NCBI GenBank assembly: GCA_951406725.2
Contig: OX597821.1
Span: 71,176,001 to 71,240,000 of the forward strand
Direction of reading: 5' to 3'
DNA: 64,000 nucleotides
DNA from: Octopus vulgaris
Lineage: Eukaryota
Each line of letters starts with the position of its first letter. Position 1 is the first letter of the stretch. Made by a program: the position numbers and the translations under genes. The notes beneath the pieces are model-generated. The model saw nothing but the letters and a program-made list of their open reading frames with translations. It searched no databases and had not been told where the DNA came from. Of the stretch, positions 2,889 to 43,149 are shown in pieces.

Positions 2889-5800
2889 ATGTATGCTTCA
2901 TCATACCTGTGAAACTTCAAATGATGCATGTCTGACTTTGTAGCATGAGTCAGGTCTACATTACTCACAGGAGTGAGAAAAAACCCCAAAATTCCTGATC
3001 GTCTCAACGCTGGGTTCTAAGTAACCAAATGGGTTCAACTGGTACTTATTTTATCGAAAGGATGAAAAATAAATTTGAATTTAGAACGTAAAGACGGACG
3101 AAATGTCGCTTAGCATTTTGACCGGCATGCTAACAATTCTGCCAGCTCGCCTCCTTAGTCTCGGGTATTAACAATGGAAAGTGAAATAAAATGACTCCGT
3201 TCGGGAATTGAAACCATGTCACCTTGCATCGTACGACAATTTGTTGTACGACGCAAACTTGAAGTGAAAATTTGTTGAGGTAGCATTTAAGTCTATCACA
3301 GAGCATCGATCTAGAACAAGAAGGTAACAGTGCTCATGGCGGCATTTGACCGTAAGAAGGCTGAACTAAATACATTTAGTGCAACACTACCCTGTGTTTC
3401 CCACACACACTGTCTAATCAATGGTGATTTGTTTGATTTATTTCTGGCAGTGAATCCGTTGAACTGTGACTGCGTCGGATAAAATGTCTAAAGAATTCGT
3501 TCCAGCTTTCCGGACTCAGAATTTCAATCGCTCGAGGCCAACTTTACCTTTATGACCTCCAGACTCAATCAGTAAAATACTCCTCTCCCTCTTTCTGGAA
3601 GAAATCGTTTATGGTAAGGACTGGAGCTGAGACAGAGAAGAGTCACGACGAATTTTACCTTTACTTTAGCCTCAAATCATAATACAAAATGTTTTCCTTT
3701 CAGTTAAACTCAATGCGACTTAAACACGAGTAAATACGCTGAAGTGGGTCGCATCTGAATATTTAGAACTACTTCTTTGAAAAAAACTGCTGACCGGTTA
3801 AACCATCCTCTGATCGCATTCAAAACAATGGACAGAAGATTTTCTTTAATCGGCGATCACAATATGACGAAATTATTTCAAAGCAGACATTTAAGCATTT
3901 TTATTTCCGAGGACCCCAGCTGTAACTGCATCCTAAAAACAGAATATGACAGAGAGACAATCAGGTATTCAATGGTTAGTACTTTAACGATCACTGTCCA
4001 TTATCCTATTGGATTCAAATCCCGCCCAGGTTGAGTTTGCTTTCATTCATTTTTCTAATATTGATAAATGATTTCATCCCTGGTTTGGGAAGATGCGTGG
4101 CCTAGTGAGCAGAGTGTTGGGGCTCTCGATCGTAAGGTTATGGGTTCAATTCCCAGACCGCGTGGCGTATCATTTCATGTCGCTTCAGTTTAGTCAGCTG
4201 AAACGAAGTACAAGCCTAGTGCTGCTGATACAGCCCCGCTCATCTATCGCATCCTGGACTTGCCGCATGATCAAGGGAGAGGGTGGATCAAGAAGAGGGT
4301 ATGTTTGTCCGCGGTTACAAACGTACCTGAAACAAGGTGCAAAAACTTAGTAGAAACAATCAGATCCTACTCGCTTGCAAGCAACGACTAAGCTATTTTA
4401 CTTCTAGTCTGGTGCTGAGAACGAGGATTTCATCAACTGCATCTTTTCTTCAATAGTTGCTGAAATGGTGCATCATCGGACAAAATGGCTTTCATTTCTT
4501 CTTTCTATTTCCTTTGTTCAATTGTCGAACTGTTTCTTTCCCCTTTCAGGAGTCGATAAATTAAGCACTGGTGTCGATTCAATTAATATTTCTCATATAT
4601 ATATATATATATAGGTGAGAGATTTGGTGTGTGAAAGCACGTGGTTGGATGTATAAAAAATAAAAAAGAGGGAAAAAAACTACAGAAGGCTTGTGTTATA
4701 AGGTTAAAGAATATATTTAAATCGTTATGTTAGAAAATTTTGTATATAGTAACATATATATATATATATATATATATATGGCCTTCACCCAATAGAAAAC
4801 GTCCTTATCATTATCATCATCATTATCATGATGGAGGTGTAGACGAGTAAGACAAGAGAGGTTACTTAGTTAATCGATCTTGCGATCTGTGTTCAAATCC
4901 GTCGGCTGTCGACTTTGACTTTCATTTTTTTCGCCAATAAATAAAACCAGTAACAGCTAAGACGTGGGTTCTTTACTCCATATTTTATATTGTTAGAAAT
5001 CACCAACGTTTTTAGAGTAAATACTAAATAAATTTCTTGTGTAACTATAAGATCTCAGATTTGTCAGTGGAAAAGATTGTACAGTGTCAGCACTGGTAAG
5101 AAGCGAAATTCCAACAGCCTGCACTCGCAATTTTGGGCTCACTTTGAGCCTAATTTTATCTATCCATGGAAAGGTGAAAAATGGAAAACATTTGTTATTG
5201 GAATCGAATCTATGAATGCAGTAAAGTTGGAACTAGGTTTCTAACATTCTCTCTTATCTCCTCCTGAACCGTCTGCACGAACCTCTGCCGATTCATGTGA
5301 TATGCAACATAAATATCAATACGGTTATTATACTAAATGTATTAGTTGCCTTTCTATGAATGAGTGAGGTGTTGTGGTTACGGCGTTGCATTCAAGATCG
5401 CGATTTCGATTCTCGGACCGGGCGCTATGTTGTGCTCTTGAGCAAAACACTCCATCTCGTGTTTCTATGCGATCACTTTGACACCTAATGCGTAGTACAC
5501 GGTGCTTCTGTTCAGGCAGCGTCTATTTGATGGAAGGAGCGATTTTATGTACAGCACAAACGTTTGATCCCTTTAGACAAATCTTTTTTTGTAGGGGATT
5601 CAGCAAAGAAGTTGCAGAACCTTCATCCTCTTGTAAACGAGATCAAAGTTCAGCATCATTTAGTTTACTTTTTGATGTCATGGCTTTCTTCTCCTGAACA
5701 GACAATCAGCCATATTCTTGATTCAATGGATCGGGTGTAAAAAAAAAGAACTGGAACAAACATATCTTTCCATAAGACATGTCAGTCCCCAAGTCTTTAA

Positions 5801-17559: not shown

Positions 17560-18600
17560 CATATTTTACATATATATATAACTTTTCAATTTCGCTTTTG
17601 TTTGGGGAACTGAGGTAACCTTGGTTTCATATACAAGTGAGCTAAGTGAACCATCTATGTCTTGCCAAGTGGGCAAGTATCTGAATTCCTAAAGTTACAT
17701 TTTGGTGTGGGCGCCTGATGTAATTTACGTATAATAATGTTTCACCTGTTCGGGCAGCAGTTATTAAGAAGCTTTTATTGATCGTCTATTATGAATTTTG
17801 CTATACCTATGGCTACCCGAGAAATGCTTATCTATCAGCCAAGGAATTTTCTACCTACGTTTTTGTTTTATCATTCACAAAGTAACGAACAATATAACCT
17901 TCCTAGGTCTGTTTTTAAAGCTTATTTCTTTTTATCGTCGAAGTCTAAGTTATTTTCTCTTCAAAATTATTATAGGGCGTTATTATAGTGGCGGGTGGGG
18001 CTGCCTTATCGAGTATTTTCTTGGAGGAGCTGAGATTAGATATCTTATTACAAATATTGGGTATAAAGTTTTTGAAGACGAAAGTGGGACTGGAAGACAG
18101 TTTGTGTATATACGTAAGATTTTTATTTTGGTTTATGGTAGCGCTTGTAAGAGCATGGATTTAGGTCCTAGCCTTGACAGATTAGCATTTCCAACATAGG
18201 CATAGTAACAATAATATCTTTAATAGACGTTCCGTGTAAGTTTCTTATAGCTGCTAGAGTAACTTGAAAAGTAGGTGTCCACTTCAAAATGTAATTTCAG
18301 GAATCCAGAACTTGCCCACTCAACCAGGTAGGTATGGTTAGCTCAAGTGTACACGAAGCCAAGGACACTTCAGTTCTGTTATGTAGCGAAATTGAAGAGA
18401 GAAAATATATAGGACGATGTGAAAGTTGCTTGAAAATGTGATGTTCCAACCACCAATGATTTTTCTGGCAAGTGGACAATAGAAGACAACCACAAAGCTA
18501 TTTGTTTGTATGTCTTTTTCATCGAGTTTTATTAAAGTTCTTAAGAGAGCCCAAGCCGGTCGCTAACAAGCGACAAAATCTTTTGAGCTAAGGGAGTTCC
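17560..18600 (+). mobile_element. Decayed Penelope-like retroelement (RT-linker-GIY-YIG fragments)
   Basis: Fragmentary translations TNIG.K.F, NIFNR..V.VSYSC.SNLKS, CNFRNPE, ERKYIGRCESCLK...NH resemble the PLE linker and GIY-YIG endonuclease. Confidence 0.65.
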
Positions 18601-18875
18601 CATTGTTTGTAAATACGTGGGTGAATTGGTGTGTTGGTTGAGCAGTCGAGGCACACAACCGTGTGCATCTATTCGTCTGAGTGTATATGTGTGAGTGTGT
18701 GTGTGTGTGTGCGCGCGCGCGCATGTGTGAGGGAGAGAGAGAGTGAGAGAGAGTGAAACAATGGTAAGTTTTGGTTTTATGTTGAATTTAAAATATACTG
18801 TATTACTAATGCAGTAAGCATTAGAGGATCAAAAGAGCACTGTAAATAAGATAAGAAAGGATACTTCGAACTTAC

Positions 18876-18942
18876 TGTCGGTCTGTTCCGTAGCCGTCCA
18901 AGTTGACGATGGCTGAAATACTGACAACCAGAGTGGGGAATC
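18876..18942 (-). CDS. aGPCR exon: TM4 end and ECL2 (FPTLVVSISAIVNLDGYGTDR)
   Basis: Acceptor tctattttag|GA, donor CA|gtaagt; 67 nt. Confidence 0.94.
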
Positions 18943-19163
18943 CTAAAATAGAATTAACAAAAAGGTTATCTCTACCTTTATAGTTTACCGTTCACAGTCA
19001 TGTGTATGTGTATGTGTATGCGTGTGTGTGTGTGTATGAGTATGTGTAGTTTTTATTTTTTGTCTTTGTTTTACAGATACGTACGCACATGCATGTGTGT
19101 ATATTTCCCCGTGTATATGTGTAATTAATGAGCGTGTATGTATGTATATATATTCATATATGT

Positions 19164-19231
<68 letters not shown>

Positions 19232-19317
19232 GTAGGTCCCGGGTTGATTCGGGGTTAACCACAGTAAGTAAGGTACTCAATACATAGCAGAGTAAAATTA
19301 ATTTATTATATAGAAGG

Positions 19318-19368
19318 AGCTTCTACAGGACTAGTACTGTTTCATTCAAGAGAAATCTTCAGGAAGCT
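19318..19368 (-). ncRNA. Type I hammerhead ribozyme motif (PLE-type), sense to the aGPCR pre-mRNA
   Basis: Minus strand reads AGCUUC-CUGAAGA-UUUC UCUU GAAU-GAAA-CAGUACUAGUCCU-GUA^GAAGCU: 6-bp stem I, intact CUGANGA/GAAA core, short stem II, near-palindromic stem III, GUA cleavage triplet. Confidence 0.82.
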
Positions 19369-19751
19369 ATTTAACAAGAATTGTATTAGCATTTATACAT
19401 TTAGGCAGGTTTAAAGGAGTGGTGGTGGGGGACTTTTTGGGGGTAGGCATAGCGCAAAATATCATACTTGGGGGAGTGGTCAAGGAGTCAGTGGTAAGTT
19501 AGATGAAAGAATAGATAAATAAAAAATAAAAAAATAAAAAATAAAAAAATAAAATAAAAAAATAAAAAAATAAAAAATATAAAAAATATATATAAAAAAA
19601 TATATATATAAAATATATATATAAAAAAATATATATATAAAAAAAGGGGGGATAGAGTTATAGGTAAATAAGGAGATTCTCACTTATACCTATACACACA
19701 TGTATACGTATCTACACACACATACATGCATACACATATATATACACACAC

Positions 19752-19782
<31 letters not shown>

Positions 19783-20670
19783 CATATATACATATACATA
19801 TGTACACACATACATACATATCTACATACACACATACATACACCCACCCACATATACAAATTTATACACATGCACATGCCTATACCTGTCTACACATACA
19901 CACACGTATATATGCATACACTCACTCCCATGCATGCACGCATACACACATGTATATATATATATATATACCCACGACCACACATACATATATACACATA
20001 AAAATATATATTCATACGCACATACACTCATGCACACACAACACACCTAGTTCCCTATATACACATATTTACACCTATATATACATACACCCACATACAC
20101 CTATGTACACATATATATATATAAACATATACACGCATACATATATATACATGTGTGCACATACATACATACACACATATATACATACACATACACATAC
20201 ACATGTGTACCTATACATACCTACACATACACACATACATACATACAAATATACATATACATATATATATATACAATCCAATACAGGCCCATTCCCTAAT
20301 TTTAATTTTATTATCTTCATTTATTACTTTTGTTATCTTTGATCGCTAGGGCTAAGAATCCTGGCAATGGCTGCATGTCCATTTGTCTGTCTACTAGAAG
20401 GCAAGTACTCATTCTCGCACGCACACTCATTAGCACGTACATTCACCCATTCGTACACTCATACACATACACGTACGCACGCGTTATATTCATACATACA
20501 AACATCTACATACGTTCACGTATATACACATACGTACTCGTACCTACAGATTCGTGTCTACACTTTAGGAGGCTAGTCTATACATATACACCAATAAATA
20601 TACATATATATATATATACCCGCATATACATACACACACACACATATATACTCCTACATACAGATACATA

Positions 20671-20718
<48 letters not shown>

Positions 20719-20906
20719 CACACACATACATACACATACACACATACATATACACACACATACATACACATATATATACATACACAAACATATATACACA
20801 CATATATATATACATACACACATACATACGTATACATACATACATACATCCATACATCCATACTTACATGCATTTATACGCATACACACACCCATCTATA
20901 TATATG

Positions 20907-20937
<31 letters not shown>

Positions 20938-21456
20938 TCACACATACATATACAAATCTACGCACACACATACATACATACACGTATACGCATACACGCA
21001 CATACACATATACATGCGTACCCATACACGTGCACACACGCACGCGCATCCATATATATACACACACACACATATATATATACACGTATGCTTGCACACG
21101 TGTATATATATGTGTGTGTGTGTATATATATGGATGCGCGTGCGTGTGTGCACGTGTATGGGTACGCATGTATATGTGTATGTGCGTGTATGCGTATACG
21201 TGTATGTATGTATGTGTGTGCGTAGATTTGTATATGTATGTGTGAGTGTGTATATATATATATATATATACATATATATAGATGGGTGTGTGTATGCGTA
21301 TAAATGCATGTAAGTATGGATGTATGGATGTATGTATGTATGTATACGTATGTATGTGTGTATGTGTGTATGTATATATATATGTGTGTATATATGTTTG
21401 TGTATGTATATATATGTGTATGTATGTGTGTGTATATGTATGTGTGTATGTGTATG

Positions 21457-21502
<46 letters not shown>

Positions 21503-22390
21503 TATGTATCTGTATGTAGGAGTATATATGTGTGTGTGTGTATGTATATGCGGGTATATATATATATATGTATATTTATTGGTGTATATGTATAGACTAG
21601 CCTCCTAAAGTGTAGACACGAATCTGTAGGTACGAGTACGTATGTGTATATACGTGAACGTATGTAGATGTTTGTATGTATGAATATAACGCGTGCGTAC
21701 GTGTATGTGTATGAGTGTACGAATGGGTGAATGTACGTGCTAATGAGTGTGCGTGCGAGAATGAGTACTTGCCTTCTAGTAGACAGACAAATGGACATGC
21801 AGCCATTGCCAGGATTCTTAGCCCTAGCGATCAAAGATAACAAAAGTAATAAATGAAGATAATAAAATTAAAATTAGGGAATGGGCCTGTATTGGATTGT
21901 ATATATATATATGTATATGTATATTTGTATGTATGTATGTGTGTATGTGTAGGTATGTATAGGTACACATGTGTATGTGTATGTGTATGTATATATGTGT
22001 GTATGTATGTATGTGCACACATGTATATATATGTATGCGTGTATATGTTTATATATATATATGTGTACATAGGTGTATGTGGGTGTATGTATATATAGGT
22101 GTAAATATGTGTATATAGGGAACTAGGTGTGTTGTGTGTGCATGAGTGTATGTGCGTATGAATATATATTTTTATGTGTATATATGTATGTGTGGTCGTG
22201 GGTATATATATATATATATACATGTGTGTATGCGTGCATGCATGGGAGTGAGTGTATGCATATATACGTGTGTGTATGTGTAGACAGGTATAGGCATGTG
22301 CATGTGTATAAATTTGTATATGTGGGCGGGTGTATGTATGTGTGTATGTAGATATGTATGTATGTGTGTACATATGTATATGTATATATG

Positions 22391-22421
<31 letters not shown>

Positions 22422-22805
22422 GTGTGTGTATATATATGTGTATGCATGTATGTGTGTGTAGATACGTATACATGTGTGTATAGGTATAAGTGAGAATCTC
22501 CTTATTTACCTATAACTCTATCCCCCCTTTTTTTTATATATATATTTTTTTATATATATATTTTATATATATATTTTTTTATATATATTTTTTATATTTT
22601 TTATTTTTTTATTTTTTATTTTATTTTTTTATTTTTTTATTTTTTTATTTTTTATTTATCTATTCTTTCATCTAACTTACCACTGACTCCTTGACCACTC
22701 CCCCAAGTATGATATTTTGCGCTATGCCTACCCCCAAAAAGTCCCCCACCACCACTCCTTTAAACCTGCCTAAATGTATAAATGCTAATACAATTCTTGT
22801 TAAAT

Positions 22806-22856
22806 AGCTTCCTGAAGATTTCTCTTGAATGAAACAGTACTAGTCCTGTAGAAGCT
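22806..22856 (+). ncRNA. Type I hammerhead ribozyme motif, mirror copy of 19318-19368
   Basis: agcttc ctgaaga tttc tctt gaat gaaa cagtactagtcct gta gaagct; predicted cleavage after 22850. Confidence 0.82.
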
Positions 22857-22867
22857 CCTTCTATATA

Positions 22868-22958
<91 letters not shown>

Positions 22959-23173
22959 GAGCGGGCAAGGAGAAAGAAAGGAAGGAAAAACGGAAGAAAG
23001 AAGAAAGGGAAGGATAGAAAGATGTGTAACATTGTGCTTACGTGTGAGAAGTTGATGCGAAGGGTATATGTATGTGTGAGTGCGTGTGCGTGTGTGTGTT
23101 GTGTGTGTGTGTGTGTGTGTGTATGTGTGTGTGTGTGTGCGTGCGTGTGTTTGTGTGTGTGTTCGTTACTCAC

Positions 23174-23327
23174 CATATCCAAATATATAGTAATAAATCA
23201 TCTTCGATTTAGCGGTTTTGAACACCTGGACAATCATGATGAGGATTTTGGCAGCTTCCATCAGCATCCAAGAGAATGCAGCCAAGAAGAAGTAATGCAT
23301 CAGCCCAGCGAACACTGAACATACCAT
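23174..23327 (-). CDS. aGPCR exon: TM3, ICL2 and start of TM4 (MVCSVFAGLMHYFFLAAFSWMLMEAAKILIMIVQVFKTAKSKMIYYYIFGYG)
   Basis: Acceptor gtacacag|ATG, donor G|gtgagt (phase 1). Confidence 0.95.
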
Positions 23328-42659: not shown

Positions 42660-43149
42660 ACCGCCTCCGTTGATTCTACACCAACTTAGGTTTATGGCTT
42701 TAAAGTCAAAAGAGACATAACTCTAATTCTCTCTCCGTTTTCCCTTTCTTTTTCCGTTCTTTTCACCCATTTTTTTACTGCATCCACCTTCCTCCCGTTT
42801 TTTCTCGTGATTTCTGTTATTCTTTTCTGATTTGCAACTAGTATAAGCCATGTGATCAGAGCCTTAGGATTGCTTGGAGACACTAGGCATGTTATTAAAA
42901 CGTGCCTAGACAACATCTTCAATGTATGAAACTCTTAGTAGCTCAAAACTATACACTGTGTATATTAACCAATATATATCTCTCACCGGATGGGTACACC
43001 TTTTGTTGATTTTATTTGAAGAGAAAATTACACACGCGCGCGCACAATACATGTGATATATGATGTATAGAGACGTACAGGTGTACCTAAGTTGTTTAAT
43101 GTCGCCTGAAGATCGTAGTGGCATGGTGCTCACTCTGAAGAGACACTAA

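Follow-up and report, generated by a model that had tools for sequence, protein, structure and literature searches.

What is a long, nearly perfect palindrome with a hammerhead-like motif at each tip doing in an intron of an octopus receptor gene? The window analyzed here, a stretch of 64,000 nt of Octopus vulgaris contig OX597821.1, carries such a structure, and the original prediction had seen in it a possible regulatory module, a self-silenced ribozyme within a giant dsRNA. This locus-specific reading found no support when the rest of the genome was compared, where thousands of young copies are nearly identical to it. What the intron contains is a single young insertion of a Penelope-like element (PLE) of Hydra-like type, a retrotransposon that has more than 2,000 copies in the genome. 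The locus is an ordinary product of a known element class, and the regulatory reading is unsupported.

The host is an adhesion GPCR gene on the minus strand, recognized by exons with Pfam matches to 7tm_2, GPS, GAIN, and HRM. The intron in question (18943-23173) is 4,231 nt long, and the whole insertion (19232-22873, 3,642 bp, between two (TA)n tracts) fills 86% of it, as expected from the earlier statement that the palindrome occupies most of the intron. Elsewhere in the window, an exon-sized ORF with an IRS-type PTB domain match (4996-5232, minus strand) belongs to a second gene, and 42695-42934 (minus strand) encodes a helix-turn-helix fragment that may derive from a transposase. The features at the locus are the following:

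18876-18942, minus strand: next host exon, TM4; splice sites read from the sequence, exon too short for a Pfam match
19208-19231, no strand: left (TA)n target tract; any target duplication is hidden inside
19232-19300, minus strand: PLE tail of 69 nt, on the left arm only; its end is the putative RT start site 1
19232-21087, minus strand: tailed arm, a 5'-truncated copy of the microsatellite-rich 3' region of the PLE
19318-19368, minus strand: predicted type I hammerhead, sense to the host pre-mRNA; predicted cut at 19324/19323, with 19368 the 5' edge of stem I
19510-19640, minus strand: U-rich tract of the RNA, where sister-copy arm ends form a second, looser cluster (no precise count)
21086-21097, no strand: head-to-head junction, a 2-nt overlap (21086-21087) plus 10 nt private to the tail-less arm
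21086-22873, plus strand: tail-less arm, a second 5'-truncated copy; its end, about 22 nt past the predicted cut, is the putative RT start site 2
22806-22856, plus strand: the tail-less arm's predicted hammerhead, which the host pre-mRNA carries in antisense
22873-22906, no strand: right (TA)n target tract, read from the sequence
23174-23310, minus strand: host exon, TM3 to the start of TM4 (7tm_2, E 2e-13); the 23310 boundary is approximate

The inverted arms (19301-21087 and 21098-22873) align over about 1.78 kb around a 10-nt centre (21088-21097), as originally described. They differ by one internal substitution (19846) and six indels, three of 1 nt in A runs and three of 12, 8, and 6 nt in microsatellites, and ungapped comparison gives 91-98% identity. 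The differences in microsatellite length were thus correctly noted, but the "rare substitutions" reduce to a single one. Likewise, the bounds of the palindrome hold, but the element starts at 19232 rather than 19301, since a further 69 nt of tail are attached to the left arm. The supposed spacer does measure 10 nt, yet it is not neutral: it is element sequence present in the right arm only, the tail-less arm being 12 nt longer than the tailed arm at the junction. The start at (TA)n is common to all 20 sister loci compared. The U-rich tract is an end point of many arms and of upstream tandem copies, perhaps a transcription start or a place of RT fall-off.

The 51-nt motifs at 19318-19368 (minus strand) and 22806-22856 (plus strand) are identical, which bears out the full hammerhead motif foreseen at each outer end. 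Read from the sequence, the motif has the type I core (CUGAnGA and GAAA), three stems, and an NUH cut site, laid out as stem I AGCUUC/GAAGCU, CUGAAGA, a 3-bp stem II, GAAA, and a 4-bp stem III, with the predicted cut after GUA (19324/19323). By eye, this core layout is common to the locus and the tabulated Hydra-clade hammerheads. The minimum-energy fold of the motif is not the hammerhead fold (-8.5 kcal/mol, z -0.17), and the constrained hammerhead fold has -7.3 kcal/mol. Rfam returned no match at gathering score, and of its 199 matches at E<=10 the 150 that were listed included no hammerhead family; its microRNA matches were rejected as microsatellite hairpins. The tailed arm starts at the predicted cut site in L141, L142, L144, and L148, a weak hint of cleavage because the 6-nt stem I overlap alone could explain these starts. 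In the accessible text of two earlier studies, metazoan PLE hammerheads are reported to cleave weakly in vitro (PMC4209133) and PLE hammerhead cleavage to need protein (PMC11167929). Branch-point-like and YAG signals at 19367-19467 (minus strand) suggest that a 3' splice site may coincide with the 5' end of stem I, and a candidate splice donor lies about 100 nt upstream; an intron of Penelope of Drosophila virilis is described as ending at the same position, the 5' end of hammerhead stem I (PMC4209133).

The 296-bp left end of the insertion found 915 candidates in the genome, and all 40 that were scored are 100% identical to it; such identity among dispersed copies is an indirect hint of retrotransposition activity. 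Exact tailed 3' ends number 2,143 genome-wide, ends of one exact tail-less form number 1,237, and an interior segment is likewise repeated, often as inverted pairs. Longer copies show a 3.3-kb microsatellite-rich region and then an ORF. The tandem unit is about 5.2 kb, with the hammerhead and the 69-nt tail running straight into the 5' end of the ORF region; such partial tandems (pseudo-LTRs) occur at L061, L062, L064, L065, L068, L070, L071, L078, and L080. The in-frame copy L072 encodes 671 amino acids with YRDDG and a C-terminal LVY..YIG region, and its protein has 299 homologs at E<=0.001. A Pfam search of the element protein returned no match; judged by motifs only, the single ORF joins an RT to a C-terminal GIY-YIG-type endonuclease, the arrangement of endonuclease-bearing (EN+) PLEs.

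Within the EN+ PLEs, several features point to the Hydra clade. L072 carries SDKT, CNCHDKTTC (CxCX5C), and CDLC..E..N..CMH (C-terminal CxxC and CxH); the family also has the (TA)n preference and, as compared by eye, the canonical hammerhead layout of that clade. RWR stands in L061 where homologs carry RWK. The tandem period of about 5.2 kb exceeds the Hydra-clade size of <3 kb, which is descriptive rather than diagnostic. Because the protein is Pfam-negative and the element is longer than the described Hydra elements, we label the family Hydra-like, a placement by motifs. A Naiad assignment was rejected, the endonuclease being C-terminal. A MITE or foldback DNA transposon was rejected on the unequal ends and on junctions that vary from one copy to the next, with either orientation to the tail. 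A non-LTR retrozyme was rejected as well, the paired units being inverted and not in direct tandem. The accessible text on one octopus genome's repeat annotation reports 30 recently active Penelope families and gives neither their clade nor their structure (PMC13282606).

L060 contains a second PLE, and the idea of a chimera between the 3' end of the Hydra-like PLE and this Neptune-like ORF was rejected, as the Neptune-like PLE is nested in a TA tract of one arm. It lies at L060:3790-6810 with RVT_1 and GIY-YIG matches, and belongs to a young family of its own with 1,411 candidates and 4,271-bp tandems; the GIY-YIG core of the Hydra-like element, unlike that of L060, is without the cysteine pair (no CCHH). 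A minimal hammerhead with a CCGAAGA core can be seen by eye at approximately L060:3950-3995. Nested structures also occur at L079:590-780, L051:5469-5580, L067, and L102, where new insertions sit in (TA)n in or beside older copies of the same family.

The RT and the endonuclease are out of frame at one C run (L061:4445-4470) in 26 of 28 sites in fetched copies. Of 144 copies, 100 are listed; 82 of these lose the frame at this run, 14 keep it, and 4 have one base more. The frame break may be a long-read homopolymer error or real; read error, RT slippage, and programmed frameshifting are the candidate causes. The length of the run differs between the two arms of L120, and a possible hairpin just downstream was noted by eye. 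The source ORF is uncertain, because most copies are out of frame at the C run.

The palindrome is the normal insertion form of this family, and exactly one arm carries the 69-nt tail as a family-wide rule. Among 40 loci picked by their tail, an inverted partner was scored within 10 kb for 32 but not for the other 8 (although L049, one of the 8, does show one). The partner is without the tail in 33 of 33 cases (these 32 loci and the locus under study), ending within a few bases of the equivalent of 19301-19303, directly on (TA)n. The same holds when copies are picked by their ORF regardless of tail state: across 57 such stretches, exactly one tail was found in 19 of the 20 scoreable pairs (two further pairs are cut by the stretch end), an excess with a probability of about 2e-5 if each arm had a 50% chance of a tail. 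The exception is the nested L093, with two tails. In the first 100.8 Mb of contig 1, pairing of the listed exact ends gave 38 mixed pairs, 1 two-tailed pair (L136), and no pair with both arms tail-less; a single tail-less form was searched in this census, and a few of its loci are shared with the earlier sets. Inverted truncated PLE copies with a tail on one end have been published (PMC8557442, PMC3846280, PMC2377424), and opposite-strand hammerhead pairs were noted earlier (PMC4209133); the architecture is therefore known. These cases, together with the family identity, agree with the original prediction that the hammerhead is Penelope-type and that PLEs make inverted duplications.

Substitutions amount to 1.9 per kb between the arms of one insertion and 6.4 per kb between insertions, and the own arm is the best match in 26 of 34 comparisons; therefore, one template served both arms. 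A shared template would also be expected from fold-back copying or later gene conversion. Changes private to one arm were found 41 times in tailed and 30 times in tail-less arms (37 unclear), and, sorted by length, 43 times in the longer and 42 times in the shorter arm (67 unclear). This evenness fits two independent syntheses, and it would equally be expected from post-insertion mutation or sequencing error. Among 33 junctions, 14 have an overlap of 1-7 nt, 12 have inserts, 4 are blunt, and 3 have long microsatellite overlaps. In the same set, the script scored 12 as symmetric within 100 nt and 19 as asymmetric, in one direction or the other, and placed 2 in neither class; it misplaced some microsatellite junctions, and the set is biased to long tailed arms. 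The longer arm can be tailed or tail-less (among the 12 symmetric junctions, it is tail-less in 7 and tailed in 3, and the arms are equal in 2). A target-primed cDNA that folds on itself could leave neither a tail-less arm that is the longer of the two nor a tailed arm that is the shorter; two cDNAs can give both outcomes.

Many insertions are far shorter. Genome-wide, 576 loci are mini-palindromes that end at the 5' edge of hammerhead stem I (19368), compared with 17 loci whose arms reach 1-30 nt past that edge and 1,103 arms that read far through it with the exact sequence of the studied locus. On contig 1, 11 of the 39 pairs have an inner spacing of 72-74 nt, and the fetched short examples are palindromes of about 200 bp whose arms stop at or just short of 19368 (14 of the 20 loci parsed). 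The 50 listed of the 576 junctions comprise 18 perfect ones with an AGCT centre, 4 with one mismatch, 17 that are one base shorter, 9 that are shorter still, and 2 with inserts, and upstream element sequence is present in none of these 50. Nine loci run from stem I straight into its partner strand; eight of them were fetched and comprise 3 short snap-back-type inserts, 4 joints from a tail-less arm to a tailed arm that starts at the predicted cut site, and 1 in the reverse order. Short inserts matching a snap-back on stem I are found in L145-L147.

The stem I boundary could reflect an RNA whose 5' end is protected, a stalled RT, or trimming back to a cDNA hairpin. As DNA, the strand complementary to the hammerhead has a fold of its own (-4.8 kcal/mol), so the boundary could arise at the DNA level. 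The Neptune-like family of the same genome, with its hammerhead chosen by eye, yielded no such mini-palindromes; the stem I rule is thus not general to PLEs. Spreading of the mini-palindromes as a unit was rejected, since the same 1-nt-shorter junction is present at either side of the tail. A 3' splice site as the boundary (AG at 19368-19367) is less likely, as arms with inserted junctions keep both bases.

The best explanation, to which we give a probability of roughly two in three, is that two cDNAs are primed from both ends of one cut in (TA)n and are then joined head to head. We infer this twin priming from sequence data. The PLE endonuclease would cut both strands of the (TA)n target; on a single RNA, one cDNA would start at the end of the tail (19232) and its partner some 70 nt farther upstream (19301-19303). 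The two would halt near a common point, which may be the RNA 5' end or a shared stall, and host microhomology-mediated end joining would fuse the cDNA 3' ends. The commonest stop would be the 5' edge of stem I, in which case the ribozyme fold would be a boundary element and not only a cutter. The loop-less centres (18 of the 50 listed) suit annealing of two molecules, and a PLE protein from an anole is described as cutting and extending both strands, with starts at two sites that bound the tail (PMC11167929). The two-tailed pairs L093 and L136, and the out-of-frame state of most ORF copies, count against twin priming. A more specific form of it is offered tentatively, as a possibility with the odds somewhat against it: a dimeric protein would use one RNA to prime at both ends of the target, starting from two fixed sites, and a minimal 137-nt template would have its 5' limit set by the fold of the hammerhead rather than by cleavage, the ribozyme acting as a structural boundary for reverse transcription. 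In any host intron, the ribozyme would moreover be hidden by the resulting head-to-head layout, and about 2,000 dsRNA hairpins would have been seeded genome-wide.

The same products might come from self-priming, in which one cDNA (or an antisense template) folds back into a two-tailed hairpin and the endonuclease removes one tail at integration; both parts of this scheme have precedents, in the self-priming on an antisense template proposed by Arkhipova and colleagues (PMC3846280) and in the "EN-mediated resolution" of the tail (PMC8557442). Self-priming would account for the shared template and for one tail per insertion, and even for asymmetry in both directions if either arm can lose its tail, and the sequences of L143 and L145-L147 show snap-back on stem I. 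Loop-less centres, however, cannot be made by intramolecular fold-back, and they are found in L030 and L032 as well as in the AGCT junctions (18 of the 50 listed). In addition, 16 of the 33 junctions are blunt joints or hold foreign or templated inserts, private changes are not in excess on the shorter arm (42 vs. 43), and two tail-bounding start sites have been demonstrated in vitro for another PLE (PMC11167929). We therefore regard self-priming as unlikely, at about one-third of the weight given to twin priming. 

Long-read fold-back chimeras exist, and a palindrome raises the question of a fold-back read or an assembly artefact, especially as no record from other samples spans the locus and the three 1-nt arm differences could be read errors. 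This explanation is nevertheless the least probable of all, with very little left to it. Unique host flanks with exons stand on both sides, each arm has a fixed end site of its own, the two are set apart by indels of 6-12 nt and by a substitution whose other allele is the family norm, and a second PLE is nested in only one arm of L060. Comparison with other samples, a check proposed at the outset, recovered the same end types: raw Illumina reads of sample X22 (4 reads) have a loose end at 19362 that matches the stem I fold-back junction, and in contigs of samples X2 and X7 the tail-less ends are joined to (TA)n at 19297-19304. The recurrent architecture genome-wide and these shared end types largely remove the worry about an artefact. 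For window positions 18320-19519, X22 and X23 (same species label) yielded no more than 6 and 17 reads, respectively, out of 1.9 Gb each. These carry fixed differences, and in X23 the tail region occurs as tandem repeats of 43-50 nt; the element burst may be absent or diverged in these two samples. Co-option as a regulatory module of the adhesion GPCR, whereby dsRNA would hide the ribozyme and editing or slow pairing would free it to tune splicing or transcript survival, is highly improbable too. Coleoids have extensive A-to-I editing, arms with one substitution would pair, and the predicted sense hammerhead does lie downstream of its own complement in the pre-mRNA, as originally noted. That order is no sign of design, however, because head-to-head geometry places the antisense motif first from either strand; in the host intron it is a by-product of head-to-head insertion. 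Thousands of near-identical copies have the same geometry, the insertion is very young and has no locus-specific feature, and PLE hammerheads are weak in vitro or protein-dependent in the reports cited above. Arm differences bear no ADAR trace (A>G 15 and T>C 13 among 71 polarised changes).

How inverted and tandem PLE insertions form, and what the hammerhead does, are stated as open questions in earlier work (PMC8557442, PMC11167929). For the family-level rules of one tail per insertion, one template for both arms, either arm as the longer one, and a stop at stem I, no prior description was found in the openly accessible literature searched, supplements being those of PMC8557442 only. The family makes predictions that can be counted (two start sites with one for each arm, a single RNA, and a halt at stem I), and it offers a short template and in-frame copies for testing the copying mechanism. 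On the host side, the family has recently supplied long perfect hairpins all over the genome, and these may enter editing or small-RNA pathways. As a caution, such palindromes are neither assembly errors nor bespoke regulatory elements.

In L1 twin priming, two cDNAs from two target strands are made on one RNA and joined by microhomology, and the second primer anneals internally, which gives a 5' inversion of mostly non-overlapping parts. In the octopus family, by comparison, both cDNAs would start at the 3' end, giving a full palindrome. The closest relatives are the Hydra-clade PLEs (Craig et al. 2021, PMC8557442), including Penelope-13_HM and Hydra-1_Obim, which as described there have the same C-terminal endonuclease, DKT, CxCX5C, C-terminal CxxC and CxH, (TA)n targets, and CUGAAGAU...UGAA hammerhead layout. 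Penelope-13_HM provides a 5'-truncated inverted copy with a hammerhead on each strand, as in our family; the printed protein of Hydra-1_Obim shares the family motifs by eye, but its hammerhead sequence differs. The octopus unit of about 5.2 kb, with its 3.3-kb microsatellite-rich 3' region, compares with Hydra-clade elements generally <3 kb, its tail has 69 nt instead of the 30-40 of described PLEs, and it carries RWR instead of RWK; its >2,000 young copies and ribozyme-bounded mini-palindromes are without a description in the accessible text of PMC8557442.

Poseidon of Anolis carolinensis (PAc) resembles the family in its two tail-bounding start sites, cutting and extension of both strands, AT-rich targets, and a hammerhead just upstream of the start sites (PMC11167929). 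PAc belongs to another clade, however, and its start sites are not tied, in the available account, one to each arm of an inverted insertion; in the octopus family, the ORF begins downstream of the tail, and both start sites adjoin a few bases matching (TA)n. Penelope of D. virilis and the PLEs of Adineta vaga similarly form partial tandems flanked by variable-length inverted repeats, with a tail at one end and a palindrome at the inverted junction, but self-priming on an antisense template was invoked for them, from few copies and without junction statistics in the accessible texts (PMC2377424, PMC3846280). Non-LTR retrozymes, like the mini-palindromes, are short non-coding PLE-derived units around a type I hammerhead; they are direct tandem repeats, whereas the 200-bp units of this family are inverted pairs whose junction is made anew in each copy (10.64898/2026.07.22.740005, PMC7229834).
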